Of a stretch of 10,451 nt of DNA, positions 1 through 10,451 are shown piece by piece. Source of the DNA: a virus (taxonomy: Duplodnaviria; Heunggongvirae; Uroviricota; Caudoviricetes). The stretch is from positions 1 through 10,451 of the IMG/VR virus record IMGVR_UViG_2562617113_000011, one strand, 5' to 3'. The notes beneath the pieces were generated by a model. The model had not been told where the DNA came from, did no database searches, and saw only the letters and a program-made list of their open reading frames with translations. A program made the translations under genes and the position numbers. Numbering within the stretch: position 1 is the stretch's first letter; each line of letters opens with the position of its first letter.

Positions 1-372
1 TTATCGCCGTAACCGCTCCGGCTTCTTCCACTGGTACGTAATTTTTTCTTTCTCCTGGTACATCTGCACGCGGCGACGGTACGACAACATCTCCAGAACT
101 CTGGTGCGTATGTTGCGTATATCCACGCCATTAAGCTCGATACCGTCACGGCGCATCACCTCAGCCATCACACGCGCGTAATTTTCAGCGGTGACTGTAT
201 CCGGCTGCGTGGCCTGTTCGTCAGCCTGCTGGCTGATTCCGGTAATACTGCGGATTATCCCGAGCGCTTCGGTCTCGGTCATGGTCATGGCCTCCATAGT
301 GATGGCGGGTCCTCCTGGTGGGGTGCCCTGCCACGGGGCGGGAGCATCGCGGAAAAAGGCTAGTTTTTGCAT
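1..372 (-). CDS. Hypothetical protein downstream of the small terminase gene (123 aa as drawn; more likely about 93 aa from an internal start at 282)
   Basis: Complete ORF whose stop codon is the first 3 nt of the window. The ATG at 372 has no convincing SD; the in-frame ATG at 282 is preceded by GGAGG with 8-nt spacing. No family recognised; a short QPDTV motif weakly recalls lambda gpFI but is insufficient to call. Confidence 0.45.
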   Translation of the reverse strand: MQKLAFFRDAPAPWQGTPPGGPAITMEAMTMTETEALGIIRSITGISQQADEQATQPDTVTAENYARVMAEVMRRDGIELNGVDIRNIRTRVLEMLSYRRRVQMYQEKEKITYQWKKPERLRR

Positions 373-491
373 TTTTATTCGTCATCACCACCAATGCAAT
401 ATATTGATATGACTTGATGTTTTATTTTTCGGTGTCGATTTCGATTGTTTTTTGTTCATCACTGACGCATAACTCCCACCAGCGCAACGCT

Positions 492-515
492 GAAAGCCAG
501 TCAGTAAACTGGCTT
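492..515 (-). other. Stem-loop (8-bp stem AAGCCAGT/ACTGGCTT, 6-nt loop) just 3' of the small terminase gene; weak U-tract
   Basis: Perfect inverted repeat seen directly in the 162-nt gap between the TerS stop (534) and the next gene. On the minus strand it is followed only by UUUCAG, so it is an attenuator or stabilising hairpin rather than a strong terminator. Confidence 0.3.
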
Positions 516-533
516 CGGTCATTGTGCACTACG

Positions 534-1076
534 TTACTTGTCTTTATCCGGCTGAAACTTATCAGGCACATTTCCGGTAGTTTCCATCAGATAATCGGAC
601 AGCATTCGCGGGATGTTTTCATCAAGTTTTGTGCATGCGTTACAGGCTCTGACAACTTCTTTTTTCAGGCCATCCAGCATGGCGGGGGTCATCTGTGGGA
701 AGCGCCTTTGCATGGTAAGCGGCAGGCTGTCCATGATAGATGAAATCTGACTCGCCAGTTTTGAAAGCGCATATATACAAAATTCCGTACTAATCACGTC
801 GCCGCGTTCGCGCTCGTTTTTAAGCTCCTGCGCCTCCGCCTGCGCTGTCAACAATCTGATCCTGACTCGCAAAAGCTCATCATTATCAATCTCGCCTTTG
901 TCGTCTGTAATCTGGTTAATTGCATTGCTAACCCGATTGTCTATTACGCTGGCAACATCATAAAACGCCTCGCGGCCTTTACGTTCAACGGGAGTCACTC
1001 CCCACTTGTCGAACGCTGTCGCACTTACACGGCAGCTTTGCGCCATGTTTTTTTTGTTCATCAGGTGCGATTTCAT
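534..1076 (-). CDS. Terminase small subunit, lambda Nu1-like (180 aa)
   Basis: The C-terminal two-thirds aligns closely to my recollection of lambda gpNu1 (e.g. AQAEAQELKN, LPLTMQRRFP, LDENIPRMLSDY); the N-terminal DNA-binding region is divergent. Start chosen at the ATG at 1076 (GGGGA SD, 5-nt spacing); alternatives are GTG 1088 and ATG 1061. Confidence 0.8.
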   Translation of the reverse strand: MKSHLMNKKNMAQSCRVSATAFDKWGVTPVERKGREAFYDVASVIDNRVSNAINQITDDKGEIDNDELLRVRIRLLTAQAEAQELKNERERGDVISTEFCIYALSKLASQISSIMDSLPLTMQRRFPQMTPAMLDGLKKEVVRACNACTKLDENIPRMLSDYLMETTGNVPDKFQPDKDK

Positions 1077-1181
1077 CAATATCCCCACTTAAGTAATGTT
1101 TCAGGTTGGTGTATTTGTTTTATCTTTCCCTTTTTATTCATAGAGATAGAGCGAACAACAAAACCACCACCAGCACCCGAA

Positions 1182-1228
1182 AAAGGCTCATAAATAGCGA
1201 AAACCCGCGCGTCTGCCGCCCCGTAACG
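1182..1228 (-). other. Lambda-like cos site (cosN-like 12-mer GGGCGGCAGACG at 1210-1221 on the minus strand, flanked by lambda-identical sequence)
   Basis: The minus strand reads CCGTTACG-GGGCGGCAGACG-CGCGGGTTTTCGCTATTTATGA. As I recall it, lambda reads GTTACG-GGGCGGCGACCT-CGCGGGTTTTCGCTATTTATGA, so the 22 nt after the 12-mer are identical and 5 of 12 overhang positions differ. It lies directly upstream of the Nu1-like gene, as in lambda. Confidence 0.6.
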
Positions 1229-1277
1229 GGTCCATATGCCGGAAAGGACCCGCCAGCCAGAGCGGGCCCTAATTTCA

Positions 1278-1622
1278 TCAACCAATCAACTTATTGCGCC
1301 CTTTCAGGGCATTACGCCTGGCGCGTTCAATCTTGAGGCATAACGCCGCATCAGGTTTTTCGGGGGTGGGAACAAGGCAATAATTTGATGCGCGCGGAAT
1401 GTTGTTAATCCACGCAACAACTTCGCTTAAATACCATGCCTTGCGGCCTTTCGTAACCTGTACGCGTTCGGGGAACTCTCCGCGAGCCTCAAGGTTTAGC
1501 AATGTGCGACGGCTAAGGGTTGTAAGCTCCACTACCTGATCCATATCGACAAGACGCTCGCTTAAGCGCATTTTATCATCGATATCTAATAGCTCTCGTA
1601 GCTGACTATCTCTTTCAATCAT
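1278..1622 (-). CDS. AlpA/excisionase-family HTH DNA-binding protein embedded in the head/packaging operon (114 aa)
   Basis: The central segment LVDMDQVVELTTLSRRTLLNLEARGEFPERVQVTKGRKAWYLSEVVAWI fits the AlpA/Vis pattern (hydrophobic-T-x-LSRsT-x(6)-G-FP ... W ... EV-x-W). ATG at 1622 lies 9 nt after the D-like stop, with GAGG overlapping that stop. Confidence 0.55.
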   Translation of the reverse strand: MIERDSQLRELLDIDDKMRLSERLVDMDQVVELTTLSRRTLLNLEARGEFPERVQVTKGRKAWYLSEVVAWINNIPRASNYCLVPTPEKPDAALCLKIERARRNALKGRNKLIG

Positions 1623-1631
1623 TCTCGTACC

Positions 1632-1973
1632 TCACACACGTGCCAGCGGCTGAACAGAAATACCTGAGCCAACAAACGCAGCAACTTTTGCTGATAGTTG
1701 TGTTACAGACTCAGGCCAGTTCAGAGCATCAACATTTAAGACGCCGGTTTTATAAACCTGAGCCTGCGTTTTTGTCGCTGTATCGATTTGTACAGCGGAA
1801 ACATAAACAGCTTTGCCTGCGCTCGTTCCATCCCATACCACCAGTGCACCAGTTACATCTTCTTGCATCAGTGGCGTAAACGCAGGGATTACCCCTTTAT
1901 TGGCTGAAAATATCCCCAGCGTAGTAACCAGTGCTTCAGTGCCAGCCATGAGTTCAGTGTAATGAGTAGCCAT
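1632..1973 (-). CDS. Head decoration protein, lambda gpD-like (113 aa)
   Basis: Size and motifs match remembered lambda gpD (PAFTPLM, VVWDGT, LNWPE, AFVGSGISV). Sits immediately downstream of the E-like gene (9-nt gap) with an AAGGGGGAG SD. Confidence 0.75.
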   Translation of the reverse strand: MATHYTELMAGTEALVTTLGIFSANKGVIPAFTPLMQEDVTGALVVWDGTSAGKAVYVSAVQIDTATKTQAQVYKTGVLNVDALNWPESVTQLSAKVAAFVGSGISVQPLARV

Positions 1974-1982
1974 TGCTCCCCC

Positions 1983-3023
1983 TTAACCAATGCGAACGGT
2001 AACAAAACGATTGATGCGGGCCGGTATTGGCTGTGGTGCAGAGTGCGTTTGTACGTACTCAATAGCCGGATCACCTGGTACGATGTAATTTTTCGGCGCA
2101 AGTTCGGCTTTAGTAAGCCCCATTCTGATTAACTCAGGATCCTGAATGCCACCGTAGGCAACGATGCCCTGTAATGATGTGTTGCCAAGCACCATCAAAT
2201 CAGGATCAAGGAAATATCTTTCAGTTCCGTCCTCGTCGGTATAACGTCCGCTATATACCACAATAGCAACATCGCCAACGTAACCCTTGAAGCTTACAGA
2301 ATCCCCAAGATTTTTCAGGGCCGTTTCAAGAACGGAATTAGATCCCCGTCGAGTATCAAGGCAATCTTTTACTGCTTTAAAGGCGCGGTATTTTTTCCAT
2401 ACGTTGCGGCCCATTACGATGATATTTGTAGTACCTTCGCTGATTTCTGCGTACTCTTCGATGTCATCGTTTGGATCAAATGTTGATAAATCTCTACCGC
2501 CCCACTCCGTACCGCCGAACTGCGTGATAATATTTTGTGGTTTTATATTCCAGTCCAGTTCATAACGTTCAATTCCATCGCCTTCAATGATATTTTTCCC
2601 CGTTGTAACCGCCTGAACAGCAAGCCACTCAATACGCGCACGAATTGCCTGCGCTTGTCTTACTAACGCTCGCTTTATTTTGAAACTGCGTGATGAATAT
2701 GCATTGAATTGTTCCGGTGATACGCCTGGTTGACGAACGGCTATTTTATTTGGGTCGATACTACTTTTTGGCTTCATATAGCCAGGACGAATTACTTTTG
2801 ATTCGTAGCCTTCATCGCGTGAGACTTTGCTACCAACCATAGGGGAACAAAATGCAGCCATCGGGATGTCTGGATCGTCAATAATATCAAGCGCAATATC
2901 CCGCGTCTCAAATGTAACGACTCGCTTAAAAAACAGGTTTATAAATAAAGAATTAATCTGCCATTGAATATCTTCGGCATTAACAACCTGTATTAACATA
3001 GCTGGTGAATATAAATCACTCAT
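1983..3023 (-). CDS. Major capsid protein, lambda gpE-like (346 aa)
   Basis: Long collinear similarity to remembered lambda gpE (NIITQFGGTEWGGRDLSTFDPNDDIEEYA, FKAVKDCLDTRRGSNSVLETA, GDVAIVVYSGRY, MVLGNT, VPGDPA); 346 aa against 341 aa for gpE; AAGAGG SD 4 nt before the ATG. Confidence 0.85.
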   Translation of the reverse strand: MSDLYSPAMLIQVVNAEDIQWQINSLFINLFFKRVVTFETRDIALDIIDDPDIPMAAFCSPMVGSKVSRDEGYESKVIRPGYMKPKSSIDPNKIAVRQPGVSPEQFNAYSSRSFKIKRALVRQAQAIRARIEWLAVQAVTTGKNIIEGDGIERYELDWNIKPQNIITQFGGTEWGGRDLSTFDPNDDIEEYAEISEGTTNIIVMGRNVWKKYRAFKAVKDCLDTRRGSNSVLETALKNLGDSVSFKGYVGDVAIVVYSGRYTDEDGTERYFLDPDLMVLGNTSLQGIVAYGGIQDPELIRMGLTKAELAPKNYIVPGDPAIEYVQTHSAPQPIPARINRFVTVRIG

Positions 3024-3207
3024 ATAACCTCTTAATACTTAGTAAAAGTGTCGCGTTAATTTTATCATCTGCCTTGTTCGGCATCTTTATGCATTGCTAT
3101 GCAATAGTGTGCAAAGTTTCAATCTTCGTTTATTTATCCGGCGTTACGTGTCATTCTGTACAGCGTTACAAGTTCAAAGACATAAATTATTCTCTTTGGT
3201 GATGAAA

Positions 3208-3234
3208 GGGTCGGAATATTCCGGCCTTTTTTTT
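3208..3234 (+). terminator. Intrinsic terminator on the plus strand (hairpin GGUCGGAAUAUUCCGGCC followed by T8)
   Basis: Palindrome CGGAATATTCCG extended by G-C and G-U pairs, then TTTTTTTT at 3227-3234. No convincing plus-strand CDS lies upstream. Confidence 0.55.
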
Positions 3235-3256
3235 GCGTGGTGTGACGGACTAAACT

Positions 3257-3281
3257 GATAAAAGCCGGATTGCTCCGGCTT
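3257..3281 (-). terminator. Intrinsic terminator ending the SSB operon (stem AAGCCGGA/TCCGGCTT, loop TTGC, then UUUUAU on the minus strand)
   Basis: Perfect 8-bp GC-rich stem located 15 nt after the SSB stop; the minus-strand read is followed by a T-run. Confidence 0.6.
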
Positions 3282-3295
3282 CTGTCACTCGTTGC

Positions 3296-3718
3296 TTAAA
3301 ACGGTATGTTATCCCCGTACGGATCATCGTTACCCGCCTGTTGTTTTGCCCTGTTCAGTGCGTCAGTAGCCTGCCCCTGCTGGCCTTTTTTGCCGCCCGG
3401 TCGCACCGTTCTCGCACTGATTACGCTGTCTGCGATAACCTGCCAGCCCTGCCGCGTTTCGCCGTTCTGGCCTGTCCACTGGCTTACCTGCATGTTACCC
3501 GCCACGCTCACCAGTTCGCCTTTGTGGTGTTTTGCCAGTGCGTCGGCCTGTCTGCCAAACGCCAGGACAGATAACCACATCGTCGCCGTTCCGTCATTTG
3601 CCTGGCTGCATGGCAGGGGAACCGCCATACTCGCCATCGCCATTTGTGTCCCTTTGCTGGTGGTCTTTAACTGCGGGTCAGCCACCAGCCGCCCGTAAGC
3701 CGCTATCTGTGCTGTCAT
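3296..3718 (-). CDS. ssb: Single-stranded DNA-binding protein (140 aa)
   Basis: OB-fold SSB pattern (GRLVADPQLK ... WLSVLAFGRQAD ... GELVSVAGNMQVSQWTGQNGETRQ), a Gly/Gln-rich linker and a C-terminal DDPYGDNIPF resembling the canonical SSB acidic tip DDDIPF. ATGA start/stop overlap with the upstream gene. Confidence 0.75.
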   Translation of the reverse strand: MTAQIAAYGRLVADPQLKTTSKGTQMAMASMAVPLPCSQANDGTATMWLSVLAFGRQADALAKHHKGELVSVAGNMQVSQWTGQNGETRQGWQVIADSVISARTVRPGGKKGQQGQATDALNRAKQQAGNDDPYGDNIPF

Positions 3719-3993
3719 GCTGTCTGCTCTCCGGTTTTAACATTGATGGTTGTCACCTGTTCCGCTTCGGCAATCTCCCGTTCTGTCAGCGTGGCAAAGT
3801 TTGCTGCCGCCGTTGTCATGAATGCGCTTATCAGGTCGGGATGTTCCTTCGCGTATCCTTCCCCCGCGTGGCGGTCTATCGTTCTGATTGCCACCTTTAA
3901 AGCGTGCTCTGTCATGTCTAACGCGCGATATTTCGGCTCTGTTCTGTCTCTGCGTTTTTTGAGTGATTTATTAAATCTCCCTGAAGTGTGCAT
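3715..3993 (-). CDS. Hypothetical protein, basic N-terminus (92 aa), translationally coupled to ssb
   Basis: ORF with a GAGGGGG SD upstream of the ATG at 3993; its stop overlaps the ssb start (ATGA). No family recognised. Confidence 0.5.
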   Translation of the reverse strand: MHTSGRFNKSLKKRRDRTEPKYRALDMTEHALKVAIRTIDRHAGEGYAKEHPDLISAFMTTAAANFATLTEREIAEAEQVTTINVKTGEQTA

Positions 3994-4040
3994 ATTTATT
4001 TTTACCCCCTCGTTTAAAAAGTTTTGAGTTGTGCCTCCCC

Positions 4041-4268
4041 TTGTCTACCTTATCTACCTTAGTGGCCCCTATGCCAGTAATGGCGCGGCTTTCAGCGGGG
4101 TAGAGTGCTTTTATCCACTATCTACTCCGTATCTACCTCCCTGTCTGATTCAGGTAAAATCAGGTAGAGAGGGTAGACAGTGGGTAGACTGTAAAAAAAG
4201 GCTGTCTACCTAACTTAATATACTGAATTAAATGTATTTTCCTTTACTCAGGTAGACAGGGTAGACAG
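4041..4268. repeat. Iteron cluster, putative origin of replication: about 9-bp GGTAGACAG/CTGTCTACC repeats in both orientations flanking an AT-rich spacer
   Basis: Direct copies at 4163-4171 (GGTAGAGAG), 4172-4180, 4183-4191 (GGTAGACTG), 4251-4259 and 4260-4268. Inverted copies at 4041-4049 and 4202-4210, with degenerate TCTACC units at 4051-4058, 4119-4127 and 4131-4137. AT-rich stretch at 4211-4250. Lies immediately 3' of the primase gene. Confidence 0.65.
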
Positions 4269-4281
4269 CAATTACAAAAAA

Positions 4282-6036
4282 TTATAAAAACGCGTCGCAC
4301 TCGTCTGTTGTTATTGCGTTAGTCTGCGTTACCCCCTTAACTTTCCGCGTAATATATTCATGTCCATAAACTTTTGCGGCAGGCTTCATAGCCTTGCCAA
4401 AGTCATTTACGTTTAGCGGTTTGCTCCTGCCTGCGTATGCCATAAACGCCAGATAGACGCGGTAAAGGCTGTTCCTGGTCGTGTACTTCACTGAATCACC
4501 ACCGCCCCCCATCATCAGGCCGCGCGCTTCCTCCAGAAAATTCAGGAACTGGCAAAACTCAATAACCGGATCCGTCTGTTGCTTTATTGCCAGTGCTTCA
4601 TCACCGTCACGCTGTTCCAGTAGTAAAGCCCGTGCCTTCTCAGGGTCGGTAAAGTTCGCCAGCAATCGGCGGATAATAACGGGGATTTCAGCCGCAATCT
4701 TTTCCGGTAGCTCCCTGTCTTTTTCGGCATCACTGACGATATTGTCGAAACGGAAAATCACGCGACGACGTGCCACACCTCCGGCCCGTTCGGTGAATAT
4801 CATCGGGTTGTTGTTGGTCGCCAGCACCACCGCCCTGATTACCGCCGTGAAACGCTTTTCATATTTCGGGTTAATTTCCACGGGGTCGCCGCCTGTGATT
4901 TTCTTGATGCCCGTTCCTTCGCCTGTATATTTCGGCTGGTCAGCCAGGACGATAAGACGACTCCCGACAACCTGCGCACGTCCACCAGCATCATCAAGCG
5001 ATGTCATTTCAGCGCTTACCGTGTTCTGTTTCCCTGCCAGAAGGCTGGCTATGTGTGTGAATGTACTTTTACCGCTCCCGCCGTCTCCGGTGGCCTCAAT
5101 AAACATCTGCCAGTCGTACCGGTTCGCCATAATCATGTACAGCGCGGCACATATACGCATCATCTTGCGCGGGTCTTTTCCGGCTGCGTGCTCAAGCCAT
5201 TTATGAAAGTTTGGCGCGTTATCGCGGATGTTTTCCCCTGGTGCTGGTAGCGTGTACTCAATGCCGTTGTGCGTGGTGATCCAGTTCTCCGGCGTGTGCG
5301 GGGAAAATTCCCCCGTTTTCAGGTCAAGCGCACCATTGGCGAACGGCAGCAAATCGCCGGACGGCTCGCCCATTGGTTCGGCAATAACTTTTAACGCTTC
5401 CACGGCGTTATTGATTACGCGCTTGCTGAAAGTGGCCCTGTGCTCTGAATAGATCGCCACCATTTCGCGGCTAAGTTCCATTGTGCTGACCGGACACCAT
5501 ACCCCGCCGCGCCATACGTGAACGATTTCACTTTCAGGATGTACGCAAACGCCATCAAAGCGATCGGCAAGCAGCTGCGCGCGCTCACTGTCCGCCATCT
5601 GCGAAAGTTGCGCCTTTTGCTTTACCGGAAGCTCAATGACCAGACCATCAGAAAGATTCTGGCGCTCACGGGCCAGATATTCGCGCCAGTTCTCCACCTT
5701 CTGACCGTGCATACCGTCAGGGTAAAAATTTGCATCCTGTACGCCTGCCGCCGCCAGCTTCTGACCAATTGCCTTTATCATTACAGGCGCAAGATATCCG
5801 GCCCTGTATATGCGTGCTGATTTTCGGCCTTCCGGCACAATTTGCAGCTTATCCAGTTCGGATAACTGCTGCTCCCCAAGCCACACAGGAGGCTCATTAT
5901 CTCCGGCCATACGCGCATCATGTTCCTGCCATTGTTTCGCGTGTGCCCAGGCATCACTACCCGCAAAAATAATGACTTCTGTTCCTTTGTGTTTTATGCC
6001 GCGTGACTGCTGTTTTACGTTCGGTGCCAGTTTCAT
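4282..6036 (-). CDS. P4-family primase/helicase replication initiator (584 aa; Walker A GDGGSGKST, SF3-type NTPase)
   Basis: P-loop GDGGSGKST and a following hydrophobic Walker-B-like stretch RLIVLADQ; overall resemblance to the helicase/C-terminal part of P4 alpha and PICI pri-rep proteins; N-terminal region possibly toprim-like. ATGA overlap with the upstream gene. Confidence 0.85.
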   Translation of the reverse strand: MKLAPNVKQQSRGIKHKGTEVIIFAGSDAWAHAKQWQEHDARMAGDNEPPVWLGEQQLSELDKLQIVPEGRKSARIYRAGYLAPVMIKAIGQKLAAAGVQDANFYPDGMHGQKVENWREYLARERQNLSDGLVIELPVKQKAQLSQMADSERAQLLADRFDGVCVHPESEIVHVWRGGVWCPVSTMELSREMVAIYSEHRATFSKRVINNAVEALKVIAEPMGEPSGDLLPFANGALDLKTGEFSPHTPENWITTHNGIEYTLPAPGENIRDNAPNFHKWLEHAAGKDPRKMMRICAALYMIMANRYDWQMFIEATGDGGSGKSTFTHIASLLAGKQNTVSAEMTSLDDAGGRAQVVGSRLIVLADQPKYTGEGTGIKKITGGDPVEINPKYEKRFTAVIRAVVLATNNNPMIFTERAGGVARRRVIFRFDNIVSDAEKDRELPEKIAAEIPVIIRRLLANFTDPEKARALLLEQRDGDEALAIKQQTDPVIEFCQFLNFLEEARGLMMGGGGDSVKYTTRNSLYRVYLAFMAYAGRSKPLNVNDFGKAMKPAAKVYGHEYITRKVKGVTQTNAITTDECDAFL

Positions 6037-6332
6037 TTTTTACCCCTGAATCCGTTAATCATGGTTTTCAGCTTCTGGATGTTTGCCCGTGCCCTGGCGT
6101 TGCTGGTGGGCACGTTATGCGGCGCGGTCTGTACCAGAGAAAAATCACGGGCAAACTGATAAACAGGCATCACGCAATCATATTCGTAACCTTCACGGCG
6201 GTAAGTTACGCGCCGTTCCTCCACGCCCTTAATCATTACCGTGCCGCCGTACTGGTCGCGGTAAATATCACCGCGCATGAATTTAGTGCGAGTTTTGCCG
6301 CTGGCAGTTAAGCCAGGATATTTAAGTTTCAT
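6033..6332 (-). CDS. Hypothetical protein immediately upstream of and coupled to the primase (99 aa)
   Basis: GGAGA SD 9 nt before the ATG at 6332; stop overlaps the primase ATG. Its position matches that of P4 Cnr-type replication modulators, but this is positional inference only. Confidence 0.5.
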   Translation of the reverse strand: MKLKYPGLTASGKTRTKFMRGDIYRDQYGGTVMIKGVEERRVTYRREGYEYDCVMPVYQFARDFSLVQTAPHNVPTSNARARANIQKLKTMINGFRGKK

Positions 6333-6337
6333 TATTT

Positions 6338-6571
6338 TTATTCTCCGGTGTGCTGTTCTTTATATCTGTCGTGCAATAGGTCTATTTCTTGTAGTTCCAT
6401 TATTACAGGCTCAAGAAGCGTTATTAATGCCGTGACAATTCGGGATTTTTGTTTGTCGCGTTCATTATCGCCAAGCGTTTCAAGCCATAAGCGCAATATT
6501 TCCAACATGTTTTCACTGTGAGAAAGTGCAAGAAATGCGCGGTCTATTGTTTCGTGGTAAATATCACGCAT
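6338..6571 (-). CDS. Hypothetical small helical protein (77 aa)
   Basis: GGGGA SD 5 nt before the ATG at 6571; 1-nt gap after the upstream gene's stop. No family recognised. Confidence 0.5.
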   Translation of the reverse strand: MRDIYHETIDRAFLALSHSENMLEILRLWLETLGDNERDKQKSRIVTALITLLEPVIMELQEIDLLHDRYKEQHTGE

Positions 6572-6572
6572 A

Positions 6573-7025
6573 TTAATCCCCGTCCGTCGCTTTTCTTAAA
6601 ATAACCTCTGTCACGAAATCAGCATAATCGGCGGCAATATTCAGTACATCAAGTCCCGTTGATTTATATTCTTTCGTGGAAAGTAAGAAAAAATCCGCTC
6701 TAATAAGTTCTGGCATTGACGAAAGCGCATCAGCCGCATCACCAGGAACGCCGGAAAATTCCTGTTTCAGGGCATTAAAACGATCATCACGCATAACCCC
6801 CCCATTTTCACAATCAGTAATCAGGATGGCTTTAGCCTCATTCAGTGCCATATCAGCACTAAATTGCATAACAGCCAGTGAGTGAGGAACGAAAGCCCCG
6901 GCATATTCTGTTTCGCTGGTGGCGTGCTTATGTGCCCTGTCCGCGATAACAGAAATATCAATCAGCGCGTGCATCAGCGTTTTGATGGCTTCGGCGGCTG
7001 CGTCCTGACGGGTGTTATTGCACAT
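6573..7025 (-). CDS. Hypothetical protein (150 aa)
   Basis: Strong AGGAGG SD 6 nt before the ATG at 7025. The longer 300-aa ORF in the track is an R/P/S-rich upstream extension and was rejected. Start overlaps the stop of the upstream gene by 11 nt. Confidence 0.55.
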   Translation of the reverse strand: MCNNTRQDAAAEAIKTLMHALIDISVIADRAHKHATSETEYAGAFVPHSLAVMQFSADMALNEAKAILITDCENGGVMRDDRFNALKQEFSGVPGDAADALSSMPELIRADFFLLSTKEYKSTGLDVLNIAADYADFVTEVILRKATDGD

Positions 7026-7557
7026 GGCGCACCTCCTGACGAATACGGGCGGCGAATACAGCGACACAACCGGACGGGCAATGGTTACGCGCTTCGCGTT
7101 CCGTCCAGGCGGTGACGTGGATGATTTGGGATTCTGACGCGCCAAAGATGATAAAGCGCCAGATAAAGACAGTGTGAGAATGTATAAGGGTAGGGATAGT
7201 AGCCATGTTGGCAGCCTCCTTTGACAGTGAAGAATTTCCACCGCAGGAAACGCCAATTTCGCTGGCGGTGGACTGAACGGGGTTGGCGTAACCGGCGTCA
7301 AAGGGAACCGGCGCTTCCGAAGAAGCCCCCGCCCAGCCCACCATAACTTTGATGTGAGCGAATGCGGACGATAAAAAAGACGCTGGCGCGTCATATATCG
7401 CCTTTGACATTTCCAAGACGCCAATCCCGGCACCAGATTTTGCTGGTGCGGGTAAATCATAGCCCTGGCTGGCATTGGCGATCAACAGGTTTTTTACATC
7501 GGGTTTATTCAGGTTGTGCGAGTCCCGCCCTTGCGGGTGTGTGGTATGATTTAACAT
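7015..7557 (-). CDS. First gene of the replication operon: Ash-family-like N-terminal region fused in frame to an Icd-like (host cell division inhibitor-like) C-terminal region (180 aa)
   Basis: The N-terminal half carries motifs I associate with P4-like Ash proteins (AKSGAGIGV, MVGWAG, PVPFDAGYANPVQSTASEIGVS). The C-terminal 63 aa (FIWRF ... ESQIIHVTAWTEREARNHC ... AVFAARIRQEV) resembles Icd-like proteins and has its own AAGGAGG SD before an internal ATG at 7206. GAGGT SD before the ATG at 7557. Family assignment is from memory. Confidence 0.5.
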   Translation of the reverse strand: MLNHTTHPQGRDSHNLNKPDVKNLLIANASQGYDLPAPAKSGAGIGVLEMSKAIYDAPASFLSSAFAHIKVMVGWAGASSEAPVPFDAGYANPVQSTASEIGVSCGGNSSLSKEAANMATIPTLIHSHTVFIWRFIIFGASESQIIHVTAWTEREARNHCPSGCVAVFAARIRQEVRHVQ

Positions 7558-7649
7558 AGCTACCTCGATACTTCTGCTATCGTTGGTGGTTAGAAGCCCT
7601 GCGAGTGGTAACGACACTTGCGGGGCTTTGCATTTATGCGCCTTGATAA

Positions 7650-7730
7650 TTTTAAGGTGTGGCCCACTATATGTTTTAGGTGTGGCCCACGTCAAGAGTT
7701 TTATTTGTGCTTTTTCTGTGTATACTGTCC
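7650..7730. promoter_or_regulatory. Divergent promoter/operator region: two 13-bp direct repeats AGGTGTGGCCCAC (7655-7667, 7678-7690) overlapping candidate sigma70 promoters on both strands
   Basis: Minus strand: -35 TTGACG (plus 7690-7695), 18-bp spacer, -10 TATAGT (plus 7666-7671), so both repeats fall in the -35/spacer/-10 region. Plus strand: -10 TATACT (7721-7726) with upstream TGTG, 30 nt before the RHH-like gene. Each repeat contains the dyad GTGG-C-CCAC. Confidence 0.55.
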
Positions 7731-7756
7731 CCCACCAATCCACCAGAGGAATAGAA

Positions 7757-7936
7757 ATGGCAACGGGTACAACAAACGCAAAATCACAAGCTCTAAAGGC
7801 TCGTGTACCACACGAAATAGTAAACGCCATGGAATCAGTGAAAGAATCAGGCGAAAGCACATCACAATTCATCATTACGTCAATGCAAGGCGAGATCAAA
7901 CGCCGCCAGCGGCGCAAGGCCAAAGAGCAGGAGTAA
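7757..7936 (+). CDS. Small DNA-binding-like protein, possibly ribbon-helix-helix (59 aa); candidate repressor acting at the adjacent repeats
   Basis: GAGGAA SD 6 nt before the ATG; the N-terminal segment KSQALKARVPHEIVNAMESV resembles an Arc/CopG-type strand-helix; basic C-terminal tail. Fold is inferred, not computed. Confidence 0.55.
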   Translation: MATGTTNAKSQALKARVPHEIVNAMESVKESGESTSQFIITSMQGEIKRRQRRKAKEQE

Positions 7937-7993
7937 CCATCACCAGCGCTGTGGTGCGGTGAACTGTGGCGCACTGGGTTACAGGTATCTACG

Positions 7994-8191
7994 ATGACTG
8001 ACAAATCATTAAAGAAATTATCCTCATCCAGGAAAAAACAACGCAAAAATGCGGTAAGCGAACAAGAACAGGAGAGATTTGCGCCATGTGCGTTTGCCCT
8101 TGAGAAGTTCTTAAAAGAGTACAGGCGCACAAAAATGGGGTCGCATACCTGGAAAACATCGCGGCATGGCAATGTTAAAGAGCAGGAATAG
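7994..8191 (+). CDS. Hypothetical highly basic small protein (65 aa); coding status uncertain
   Basis: ORF following the RHH-like gene in the same orientation with a weak SD (AGGT, 7-nt spacing); K/R-rich, no motif recognised. A plus-strand terminator follows at 8295-8322. Confidence 0.35.
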   Translation: MTDKSLKKLSSSRKKQRKNAVSEQEQERFAPCAFALEKFLKEYRRTKMGSHTWKTSRHGNVKEQE

Positions 8192-8294
8192 CCCACCAGC
8201 AAGCCAGCACACTGATCACATTGCCCACCAGCCGCAAATGTGGCATTGTTGGCAATGCTCATGCGTTGGGGATAACGTGTAGCTTGTGTCGAAG

Positions 8295-8322
8295 GGCCAC
8301 CGTAGCGGGTGGCCTTTGTTTT
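8295..8322 (+). terminator. Intrinsic terminator for the small plus-strand operon (stem GGCCACC/GGTGGCC, then TTTGTTTT)
   Basis: 7-bp GC stem with a 6-nt loop followed by a T-rich tract on the plus strand only. Confidence 0.55.
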
Positions 8323-8360
8323 GCCTGTTATCCGGCAATTGTGGCGCTTCGCTACACGGT

Positions 8361-8446
8361 TGATATAATCCCACTGCACTGATTCATTTTTTGCGCAGTA
8401 GGTTAATTGTTCGCAAGGGCGCTCCGGCAACGGGGCGCTTTTTGTT
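8361..8446 (+). ncRNA. Candidate small RNA unit: extended -10 promoter (TGaTATAAT, 8361-8369) followed about 50 nt later by a strong intrinsic terminator (8419-8446)
   Basis: Perfect TATAAT preceded by TGn; hairpin GCGCUCCG-GCAA-CGGGGCGC (GNRA-type loop) followed by TTTTTGTT; no ATG-initiated ORF between them. Lies on the opposite strand just past the 3' end of alpA. Confidence 0.3.
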
Positions 8447-8473
8447 ATGTTCATCGCGTTACGCCTCACACCA

Positions 8474-8680
8474 TTACGCAGCCGTTCCGCGCGCTTCTTC
8501 CTCGCGCTCTTTCAGCCAGGCCAGCACTTCATCTTCATACCAGCCAACACGACGCAGACCGATTTTGAAGCCTTTCGGGAATTTTCCTGCGTTGATCATG
8601 TCCTGTAGCGAACTGTCTGCCTTGATGCGCAGAATATTTTTTACTTCCTGACGGGTAAGTATTTTTCTGATTGTTTCCAC
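8474..8680 (-). CDS. alpA: AlpA/Vis-family phage transcriptional regulator / excisionase-like protein (68 aa)
   Basis: HTH pattern LRIKADSSLQDMINAGKFPKGFKIGLRRVGWYEDEVLAWL typical of AlpA; GTG start at 8680 with GAGGT SD 8 nt upstream; position next to the integrase. Confidence 0.8.
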   Translation of the reverse strand: METIRKILTRQEVKNILRIKADSSLQDMINAGKFPKGFKIGLRRVGWYEDEVLAWLKEREEEARGTAA

Positions 8681-8813
8681 TATGTTTTACCTCGTTAATC
8701 CGGCGTATTCCGGTGATAAATACGGTAAAACAGGGCTGGGCGGGAAAAACAGTACCCACCGTTTTAAAACGGTATCCACTGTTTTTTATCTCATTGATTA
8801 CGCTTTTCTTTCT

Positions 8814-8846
8814 GCAAAAAAATAGCGACCGCAAAGGGCCGCTATT
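8814..8846 (-). terminator. Intrinsic terminator after the integrase-proximal small gene (10-bp stem with one mismatch, then a U6-8 tract on the minus strand)
   Basis: Inverted repeat AATAGCGACC/GGCCGCTATT (8821-8846) followed on the minus strand by an A-run on the plus strand (8815-8820), i.e. U-tract. Confidence 0.55.
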
Positions 8847-8850
8847 GTGA

Positions 8851-9093
8851 TTACCGTTTCCACTTCTTAGGTCGCCCACCGCATTTAAGGCTGGTGGGCC
8901 TCAGCACCTTGTCGATGCTTTCAGCCAGATTTTTCGATGCACCACGCGAGCGCAAAAAACTGACTACCTCGTGTTTTGTGGGGGCTGTTGATTTGTCTTC
9001 CGGATCGTATGTTGACCAGAATTCACGATTTGCCATTAACGCCAGTTGCAGCCCTTCGCCGCAAGCAGGGGATACCTTTTCATTGAAAAACAC
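8851..9093 (-). CDS. Hypothetical protein downstream of the integrase (80 aa), basic C-terminus GGRPKKWKR
   Basis: GTG start at 9093 with AAGGAG SD 8 nt upstream; followed by an intrinsic terminator. No family recognised. Confidence 0.45.
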   Translation of the reverse strand: MFFNEKVSPACGEGLQLALMANREFWSTYDPEDKSTAPTKHEVVSFLRSRGASKNLAESIDKVLRPTSLKCGGRPKKWKR

Positions 9094-9209
9094 CTGGATA
9101 GCTCCTTGAATTTCATGATTTGGGTGACTCCTCTCTGTATTGGGTGGGTTGTGGCGATTATACGATGGTTTAGCATGGTTTGCATCGCTTTTACTGGTTT
9201 TTTGTACAG

Positions 9210-10451
9210 TTACACGGCACGGATACCCCTTTTACCACTGGCTATGGTCACTCCGGTAGCTGCGGCCTCTACAAATTCCCCCCACCAGCGCATAAGCACC
9301 ACGCGCTTTTCCAGGTAGTTACTTCGGTTATATGCTCGCCTTACCTCGTTCGTGTCCACGTGTGCGAGTGCGGCCTCGATTACGTCCGGCTCGAATCCTT
9401 CCTCGTTCGCTGCTGTACTGAATATGGCGCGTAATCCGTGAGACACCAGCACACCAGCGTATCCCATCCGGCGCAATGCAGCGTTAGCGGTCTGGCTGTT
9501 CATTGGCAGCATTGGATTTTTAAGGCTGGGAAAAACATGTTCCCTGTGTGCGCTGATTGGCTTCATTGTTTCCAGTACAGCCATCGCCTGACCGCAAAGA
9601 GGGATCACATGGTCACGGCGCATCTTCATGCGTCCGGCTGGAATCGTCCATGTTTCGGCATCGAGATCTATTTCTTCCCAGCGTGCGGCGGCTGCTTCGG
9701 CTGGGCGTGCTACGGTCAGCAGTTGCCACTCGATTAGCAATCTGGTTTGCCGTTCTATGCTGGCGACCGATAAATCGTGCATTAGCTGCGGTAGCTGTTC
9801 CGGTCGGATGGTTGGCATATGCTTTTTAGTGGGGGAAGGGAATGCCTTGCGGACGTTCGCGGCGGTGTTGATGTCAATCAGCCCACTGTTGGCAGCAAAA
9901 TCCATCACTTCATTGATGCGTTGTAAAACGCGTTTCAGAGTTTCCAGGTTGCCGCGTGCTTTAATGGGTGTGAGTATCTCAACAAAGCGGCGAGCGGTGA
10001 GGGTATCTATTGGCGTGTTTCCGATGTACGGGAATACGTATTTTTCCAGGGATCGCCAGATATCCTTAATCGTGTTGTAAGCCAGATTCTGGCCTTTTTT
10101 CATCTCGTACCAGTCCAAGGCAACTTTTTCGAACGTGTTGCCCTTTTTCCTGCTCTCTGCTTCACGTTTCCGGCGTTCGTAGTCCTGTGGGTCAGTTCCC
10201 TTTGCTATGAGTGACCTGTATTCATTCCGTCGCTCTCTGGCATCAGACAGGGAAACATCATTTAGCGATCCAAGGCTGATAATAGTCCGTTTTTTATCTG
10301 CCGGGCGGTAGTACGTAAAACGCCAGATTTTTGATCCGGAGGGCTTCACCAGAAGAAATAATCCTCCGCCATCCTGCAGGGTATATTCCTTTTCCCCTGG
10401 TCGTGCGTTTTTGATCTCCGTAATAGTTAGTGGGGTGGTTTTTCGTGCCAT
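9210..10451 (-). CDS. int: P4-type tyrosine integrase (site-specific recombinase, 413 aa)
   Basis: N-terminus MARKTTPLTITEIKNARPGEKEYTLQDGGGLFLLVKPSGSKIWRFTYY is typical of P4/CP4-57-type integrases; C-terminal catalytic region with HGLR and the RRAYNRSNY tyrosine motif. The start codon is the last 3 nt of the window. Confidence 0.9.
   Translation of the reverse strand: MARKTTPLTITEIKNARPGEKEYTLQDGGGLFLLVKPSGSKIWRFTYYRPADKKRTIISLGSLNDVSLSDARERRNEYRSLIAKGTDPQDYERRKREAESRKKGNTFEKVALDWYEMKKGQNLAYNTIKDIWRSLEKYVFPYIGNTPIDTLTARRFVEILTPIKARGNLETLKRVLQRINEVMDFAANSGLIDINTAANVRKAFPSPTKKHMPTIRPEQLPQLMHDLSVASIERQTRLLIEWQLLTVARPAEAAAARWEEIDLDAETWTIPAGRMKMRRDHVIPLCGQAMAVLETMKPISAHREHVFPSLKNPMLPMNSQTANAALRRMGYAGVLVSHGLRAIFSTAANEEGFEPDVIEAALAHVDTNEVRRAYNRSNYLEKRVVLMRWWGEFVEAAATGVTIASGKRGIRAV

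Follow-up and report, generated by a model that had tools for sequence, protein, structure and literature searches.

A lambda gpD-family decoration gene in the E-then-D module of a lambda-cos-type phage-inducible chromosomal island

Why does a phage satellite that carries no genes for a portal, a head protease or a large terminase (TerL) encode a head decoration protein? The question is raised by a stretch of viral DNA of 10,451 nucleotides (IMG/VR record IMGVR_UViG_2562617113_000011, positions 1 to 10,451), hereafter the window, by which we mean this stretch at its whole length. The window is a Gram-negative phage-inducible chromosomal island (PICI). On its minus strand, a gene resembling the decoration gene D of phage lambda directly follows one resembling the lambda major capsid gene E (Table 1). 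A model that saw only the letters of the window and ran no database searches (the sequence-only reading) had described the D-like gene as encoding a gpD-like decoration protein and, with its neighbor, a co-adapted shell pair. We conclude that the D-like product is almost certainly a gpD-family protein belonging to the shell module of a PICI. The E/D pair of this island family was already described in 2018, and the window is another sequence member of that family; what the pair does for the island is the subject of most of what follows.

The family assignment made by the sequence-only reading is borne out by profile, structure and annotation evidence. The D-like open reading frame (ORF) matches the Pfam family HDPD (PF02924) with an E value of 7.4e-16 and 58.8 bits, against a gathering cutoff of 29.1 bits, and covers profile positions 1 to 111 of 116; it also matches PHROG 49, "head decoration" (E = 5e-26). 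Compared with solved structures, the protein matches SHP of phage 21 (PDB 1TD0; E = 3e-16) and lambda gpD (E = 2e-12). An AlphaFold2 model made from an alignment of 43 homologues has a mean predicted local distance difference test (pLDDT) score of 81.7 and superposes on SHP with template modeling (TM) scores of 0.81 to 0.91 and a root mean square deviation of 1.5 Å, and on gpD of the mature lambda virion (8XQB) with TM scores of 0.85 to 0.89. Residues 1 to 8 alone fall below a pLDDT of 50, which is consistent with the flexible N terminus of gpD, low model confidence being no proof of disorder. The same protein is annotated in the Escherichia coli strain EC43 (locus L001) as a "head decoration protein" (WP_001406450.1). 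Neither the D-like nor the E-like protein matched any PADLOC or NCBIfam model, so that these two model sets provided no link to a defense system and no NCBI equivalog.

The E-like protein is recognizable over its full length, matching lambda gpE over residues 11 to 345 (E = 2.5e-75), and it is 55% identical (E = 5e-121) to c1499, the capsid protein of the E. coli island EcCICFT073 (locus L002; PDB 3BQW). The similarity to lambda gpE is uneven, reaching 71 to 76% identity in the central part (lambda residues ~163 to 187 and 213 to 261) and only 21 to 36% in the N-terminal 160 residues, while over the last 30 residues conservation is 94% among islands and identity to lambda 44%. The gap of 9 nucleotides between the two genes, from which the sequence-only reading had argued for tight linkage, is exact. 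Read directly, the junction is TAA-GGGGGAGCA-ATG, from the stop codon of E to the start codon of D; it includes a Shine-Dalgarno-like GGGGGAG, and the two genes share one reading frame. Upstream of the E-like gene lies a noncoding gap of 272 nucleotides (3024 to 3295), where the subfamily of the window has no small ORF; in the CFT073/Salmonella subfamily, an ORF of 68 to 74 amino acids abuts the start of the capsid gene (L002:5463-5669 and L007:7712-7936). A scan of positions 1 to 4300 gave 6 promoters and 3 terminators, where shuffled sequence gave 6.0 and 5.1; as these counts are at or below expectation, transcription units cannot be inferred from the scan.

The pair belongs to a clade of its own. 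Island copies are 48 to 98% identical to one another, and among 50,697 phage records, the highest identity to the window is 41% for D and 42% for E (40.6% and 41.7%, respectively, for the lambda proteins). Gene order differs as well: D precedes E in lambda, helper prophages and a lambda-headed myovirus, and islands have E first. A distinct clade with a reversed order indicates that the pair is an old, rearranged island lineage rather than a recent phage fragment. In every island locus inspected, D begins 9 to 13 nucleotides after E, and the order is kept in islands of Serratia, Buttiauxella, Salmonella, Kluyvera, Superficieibacter, Kosakonia and Cedecea. In all, the arrangement extends to ten other genera of Enterobacterales, in islands whose integrases and replicons differ. 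Besides an integrase, the small islands with the pair encode a replication module of one of several unrelated kinds (DUF927, D5_N or AAA_25/RepA); since the order is constant across these, the module evidently survives replicon swapping. Full-length homologues with 48 to 81% identity occur in all seven of these genera and also in Citrobacter, Klebsiella, Scandinavium, Pluralibacter, Lelliottia and Enterobacter. A genome-contig scan with the D alignment gave 5 loci, a number insufficient for a mirror-tree comparison of E with D.

Both genes are under strong purifying selection. The ratio of nonsynonymous to synonymous substitution rates (dN/dS) is 0.09 for D (dN 0.020, dS 0.22) and 0.08 for E (dN 0.10, dS 1.3), as calculated for the window against the E. 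coli loci L010 and L011 only, more distant pairs being saturated (dS above 1 or undefined). Among 5,426 complete E. coli genomes, the window-type pair is present in 396 (7%) and the CFT073-type pair in 598 (11%); at least 80% of the pair length is kept in 395 of the former and in all 598 of the latter. The contention that the pair is a maintained module and not a random fragment therefore holds, given a dN/dS of about 0.09, a conserved order and gap, and a clade apart from phages. Truncated or fused copies do exist occasionally (P0044 to P0048, P0028 and H75). One of them, P0028 from E. coli, is a protein of 194 amino acids annotated as a terminase small subunit, with both Nu1 and gpD domains (PF07471 and PF02924) and 96% identity to the D-like protein of the window over 73% of the length of the latter; presumably it arose by a deletion that fused D to the small terminase gene and removed the intervening helix-turn-helix (HTH) gene and cos site.

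Are the two proteins matched to each other? In lambda, the first 14 residues of gpD are flexible and add a strand to a sheet made of the E-loop of one gpE subunit and the N-arm of another (PMC5701804). The N terminus of island D carries the motif x-Y-x-E-L-x-A-G-T-E-x-L-V-T-T (ELxAGTExLVTT), which the clade conserves; lambda-type D has H-x-Q-P-x-G-N-S-D-P-A-H-T instead, and the island arm is 4 residues shorter. At its other end, island D has a near-invariant QPL extension that is lacking in lambda-type D, which ends in ISIV. On the side of E, the stretch aligned to lambda residues 39 to 88 has a mean identity of 80% among islands and of ~33 to 36% to lambda; it probably includes the E-loop hairpin, whose position we estimated from the order of elements in the HK97 fold. 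The strongest line of evidence is given by four islands inserted in the E gene of a lambda-type prophage (L006, L010, L014 and L015), where the helper genes C, Nu3 and D are followed by the island, from its integrase through E, D and the HTH gene, and then by the remnant of helper E (its 3' 77%) with FI and FII. An intact helper D gene flanks the island in L014 and L015, and it is ~40% identical to the D that the island itself has retained. A spare copy would explain the presence of E but not that of D, and the retention of D thus suggests that helper D may be unable to serve island E. (The L010 island also carries a DUF262 gene, a HEPN gene and an IS5 element.) On these patterns, E and D are a genuine and maintained pair, and probably a co-adapted one.

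Several observations weigh against this interpretation. The argument about the D-E interface is drawn from sequence patterns, with an E-loop position that is an estimate. Compared with L010 and L011, the D-like protein of the window is 96% identical and the E-like protein 84%, and there is a breakpoint within the 3' end of E, at about window positions 2030 to 2090. Nucleotide identity is ~70 to 88% across most of E and rises past the breakpoint to 95 to 98% over the last 60 to 120 nucleotides of E and the first 240 nucleotides of D, before it eases to 87 to 90% at the 3' end of D and drops again in the HTH gene. Recombination can move D and E separately, and one D is functional, or at any rate maintained, beside E proteins that differ at 16% of positions. 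Experiments with EcCICFT073 point the same way. Deletion of c1499 or of c1500, the decoration gene of that island, did not restore plaque formation by lambda and left transfer of the island by its resident helper unchanged, and the resident helper, lambda and phi80 all continued to transfer an island in which cat had taken the place of c1499 (PMC6092414). All DNA packaged in lysates from EcCICFT073 with lambda was phage sized (PMC6092414). These deletion results concern the CFT073 proteins, which are only 54 to 55% identical to those of the window.

The claim of a co-adapted pair consequently stands in part. Linkage, maintenance, clade-specific contact regions and a D kept beside helper D speak for it, and the separate exchange of D and E speaks against it; a matched shell pair is plausible but unproven, as far as sequence comparison can tell. 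Of the checks that had been proposed for it, deletion of the decoration gene is already published for c1500, with transfer and interference unaffected, which answers the transfer half of the refuting condition. A change of shell geometry by the island, which the sequence-only reading had considered, is unsupported, and the DNA packaged from EcCICFT073 is phage sized. A search of the literature for the function of the E and D proteins of PICIs returned only two statements, namely the null result of Fillol-Salom et al. in 2018, who wrote that no phenotype could be found for c1499 (PMC6092414), and a remark by Schmid et al. in 2023 that the capsid gene, the commonest late gene and carried by 21 of the 29 Gram-negative PICIs taken as reference, is not needed for transfer (PMC10111431). 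Our finding re-describes a published feature.

The mechanism that we favor, tentatively and as a possibility short of a probability, is that island E and D build a cemented shell, wholly or partly of island protein, on the machinery of the helper. The gene would encode a predicted trimeric cementing protein of the gpD type within an E-then-D "shell module" of lambda-cos-type Gram-negative PICIs. Induction of a lambda-like helper would be followed by excision and replication of the island and by expression of E, D, the HTH protein and the Nu1-like small terminase (TerS); induction, replication and high-frequency transfer by a helper are shown for EcCICFT073 only (PMC6092414). E-like subunits would assemble on the portal, scaffold and protease of the helper, the island having no versions of these, and the resulting shell would consist wholly or partly of island protein. 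Following DNA-driven expansion, D-like trimers would occupy the threefold sites, each N-arm adding a strand to the sheet of E-loop and E N-arm as in lambda, and a preference of D-like trimers for E-like subunits would come from the parts specific to islands, the N-arm of D and the E-loop of E. The pair would matter when shell protein from the helper is scarce, ill-matched or interrupted, for example in islands that sit in the helper E gene. With a fully competent lambda-type helper, it would be redundant, which would account for the null deletion phenotype in EcCICFT073.

A sister island shows that the shell genes can be replaced as a block. In E. coli UTAK-5 (L003), an island at the same tRNA-Pro site has an integrase and a TerS that are each 99.5% identical to those of the window and a single-stranded DNA-binding protein (SSB) that is 97% identical, and a single fusion protein of 637 amino acids with ClpP-like protease, scaffold and capsid parts (L003:4285-6198) replaces E, D and the HTH gene. 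Lambdoid phages of the mEp460/cdtI type have a head gene to which the fusion is 57% identical. The exchanged segment corresponds to window positions 1225 to 3259, with edges at cosN (1224) and just after the SSB gene (3260), and with limits such as these the slot behaves as an exchangeable "shell" cassette. The swap fits islands that supply shell proteins suited to particular head types, and the fusion in the same slot suggests that the slot is exchanged to match the head types of helpers. From this, one might go further and regard the island as a "shell-only" capsid former, an intermediate class of satellite with diverged E and D that do not mix with those of the helper and with everything else stolen; we consider this extension rather doubtful.

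The alternative that survives best is that E and D are a generic backup or dosage copy, topping up or replacing helper shell proteins with no island-specific pairing or shell. This idea was already put forward in PMC10111431. It agrees with the position of L006, L010, L014 and L015 within a lambda-type E gene and with the null phenotypes of EcCICFT073, which are what redundancy would give, and the 71 to 76% identity to lambda in the central region of E, which we take as the A-domain, makes mixed capsomers conceivable. The island in the window, however, is not embedded in a helper, and in the composites the helper D is uninterrupted and the island D is nevertheless kept under purifying selection. 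An identity of ~41%, together with clade-specific contact regions, is also more divergence than a spare copy needs, and we judge the explanation unlikely.

It is less probable again, in our estimation, that the E-like and D-like proteins serve to interfere with the helper by co-assembling with, or titrating, its head proteins and lowering its yield. PICIs commonly target capsid assembly, SaPIbov5 does so with Ccm (PMC6092414, PMC8569155), and the island proteins are diverged paralogues of helper shell proteins. The failure of c1499 and c1500 deletions to restore lambda plaques on EcCICFT073 cells is evidence against this, although RppA alone blocks lambda and could have masked a second effect in the 2018 test; the lack of a matching PADLOC defense model also counts against it. 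Improbable too, and to a marked degree, is redirection of capsid size, in which the E-like protein would force small capsids for one or two island genomes and the D-like protein would cement them. The sequence-only reading had considered a change of shell geometry, SaPIbov5 Ccm and possibly PmCI172 are precedents, and at ~10.5 kb the island is roughly a quarter of the lambda genome. But the DNA in lysates of EcCICFT073 with lambda is all phage sized. Moreover, the packaging limits of the lambda head accommodate four island copies of ~10.5 kb, and cos packaging of concatemers therefore needs no small capsid. Finally, that the pair is a decaying, functionless relic of an ancestral phage or capsid-forming island is hardly credible and we reject it: the lack of a deletion phenotype and the occasional truncated or fused copies would agree with it, but dN/dS is ~0.09 for both genes, at least 80% of the pair length is kept in 993 of 994 matching E. 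coli genomes, and pairs as distant as 48% identity, in other genera and after replicon swaps, are still of full length.

Table 1. Features of the window, listed from its right end to its left end; all lie on the minus strand.
Feature	Position	Strand	Remarks
Island tyrosine integrase	9210..10451	-	Pfam integrase domains; relatives beside tRNA-Pro/yejM
AlpA regulator	8474..8680	-	PF05930
Ash/Icd-like region and DUF4222 gene	between AlpA and primase in gene listing	-	
Primase/helicase (D5_N, DUF5906, Pox_D5)	4282..6036	-	98.5% identical to EcCICFT073 primase
SSB gene	3296..3718	-	PF00436; upstream edge of exchangeable capsid cassette
E-like gene, 346-aa HK97-fold major capsid protein, lambda gpE family	1983..3023	-	PF03864, E = 3e-40
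E-D spacer, 9 nt	1974..1982	-	GGGGGAGCA between E stop TAA and D start ATG, read directly
D-like gene, 113-aa head decoration protein of lambda gpD/phage 21 SHP family	1632..1973	-	ATG start, TGA stop
AlpA-like HTH gene	1278..1622	-	PF05930, E = 9e-8; PHROG 2790, E = 1e-37
Lambda-like cos site (cosQ-proximal box, cosN, start of cosB)	1139..1252	-	between HTH and TerS genes
Nu1-like TerS	534..1088	-	PF07471, E = 5.5e-23; PHROG 57, E = 6e-52
PHROG 1561 gene	1-372	-	

The remaining features of the window place the pair in an island with its own packaging signal. An integrase stands at one end, followed by AlpA and a primase, the genes are mostly co-directional, and the length falls in the class of ~10 to 20 kb. 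Tail genes, lysis genes and most head genes are absent, as judged by tblastn on the window and by the annotation of L001. Searches with the lambda proteins A, W, B, C, Nu3, FI and FII by tblastn gave no match in the window, and no portal, protease or TerL is present in the window or in L001, its closest complete relative (98% identity over 79% of the window). The L001 island occupies ~10.5 kb between tRNA-Pro/yejM and yejO, with chromosomal genes on both sides. That the pair is island encoded, as the sequence-only reading had it, is confirmed by this chromosomal setting together with the tyrosine integrase, AlpA, D5_N primase and SSB.

The island has a lambda-like cos site and, in place of Rpp, a Nu1-like TerS, which is 36% identical to lambda Nu1 over 98% of its length and whose start in RefSeq relatives is at the position equivalent to 1076. 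The cos site came to light when we inspected the intergenic sequence and aligned it to the lambda junction, exact and near-exact searches for lambda cosN having missed it owing to four changes in cosN. The local alignment to the circularized lambda cos junction has a score of 92, with CGGGTCCTTTCCGG, GTTACGGGGCGGC and CGCGGGTTTTCGCTATTTATGA conserved and GTTACG-GGGCGGC among the conserved blocks. The cosN itself, at about 1210 to 1221, reads GGGCGGCAGACG, where lambda has GGGCGGCGACCT, so that 4 of 12 positions differ; the same variant occurs in EC43, and EcCICFT073 and L011 have the lambda cosN. A lambda-type cos and a Nu1-like TerS point to a helper of the lambda cos type, whose large terminase should resemble gpA and whose head should be of the E/D type. 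Since this TerS is full length, where EcCICFT073 has Rpp, the island probably sets packaging specificity by replacing the helper TerS and not by modifying it as Rpp does. Between TerS and the pair, the HTH gene begins 9 nucleotides downstream of D as the third member of an E-D-HTH cluster, and an HTH gene also follows D in L004, L006 and L010 to L015.

The window is a recombinant. Its packaging and shell end (positions 1 to 3932) is 98.3% identical to EC43, its SSB-primase region (3390 to 6845) has 92.5% nucleotide identity to EcCICFT073, and the best match at a single place among complete E. coli genomes covers no more than 83% of it. Positions 7060 to 7503 have no counterpart in L001. Two long open frames on the minus strand, at 7015 to 8469 (484 codons) and 6573 to 7475 (300 codons), span the regulatory region and are antisense to small plus-strand ORFs, and the only family match of the longer one (Ash, PF10554) is limited to residues 340 to 428; as the annotations of L001 and L003 have it, the true genes under both frames are probably much shorter.

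How does this island compare with known systems? Its nearest parallel is EcCICFT073, where c1499 (capsid) and c1500 (head decoration) have the same order and spacing as the pair in the window, D being 54% identical to c1500 and E 55% to c1499, and where a lambda-like cos likewise lies just downstream. The two differ in what follows D, c1501 and RppA in EcCICFT073 and an AlpA-like HTH gene and full Nu1-like TerS in the window, and in cosN, identical to that of lambda in the former and changed at 4 of 12 positions in the latter. The helper-embedded PICIs of the 11capE type (PMC10111431) share the E-D-HTH module (with D 96% and E 84% identical in L010), whereas the island in the window lies beside tRNA-Pro and not in a helper capsid gene, and the integrases are only 25 to 27% identical. 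With lambda gpD and SHP, the D-like protein has in common homology, fold, a similar length and a neighboring gene of the gpE family, and its low-confidence N-arm is consistent with a flexible one, but identity is ~40%, and the D gene of the window stands after E, in a satellite without portal, scaffold or protease genes.

More distant parallels are functional. SaPIbov5 Ccm is a satellite capsid homologue that enters a shell built by the helper (PMC8569155), and P4 Psu is a satellite-encoded capsid decoration protein (PMC13612085); both are functional analogues only, having shown no sequence relationship in any search that we made. Ccm changes capsid size and shape, which is unsupported for the family of the window, and Psu decorates capsid shells of the helper P2. 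The capsid-forming PICIs (cf-PICIs) of the EcCIEDL933 type resemble the window in having a capsid clade of their own apart from phages (10.1101/2022.09.08.507074) and an int-alpA-rep type of backbone. They encode a portal, protease, head-tail connectors, HNH and TerL, in contrast to the window, which has none of these; with E, D and TerS alone of the head and packaging set, its membership of the cf-PICIs was rejected. If island E and D do enter transducing particles, islands of this kind would occupy a middle position between the classical PICIs, dependent on the helper for the entire capsid, and the cf-PICIs, with a capsid of their own making. Consequences would then follow for helper range, for the stability of particles, for recognition by host defenses that sense capsids and for the design of PICI-based delivery particles.

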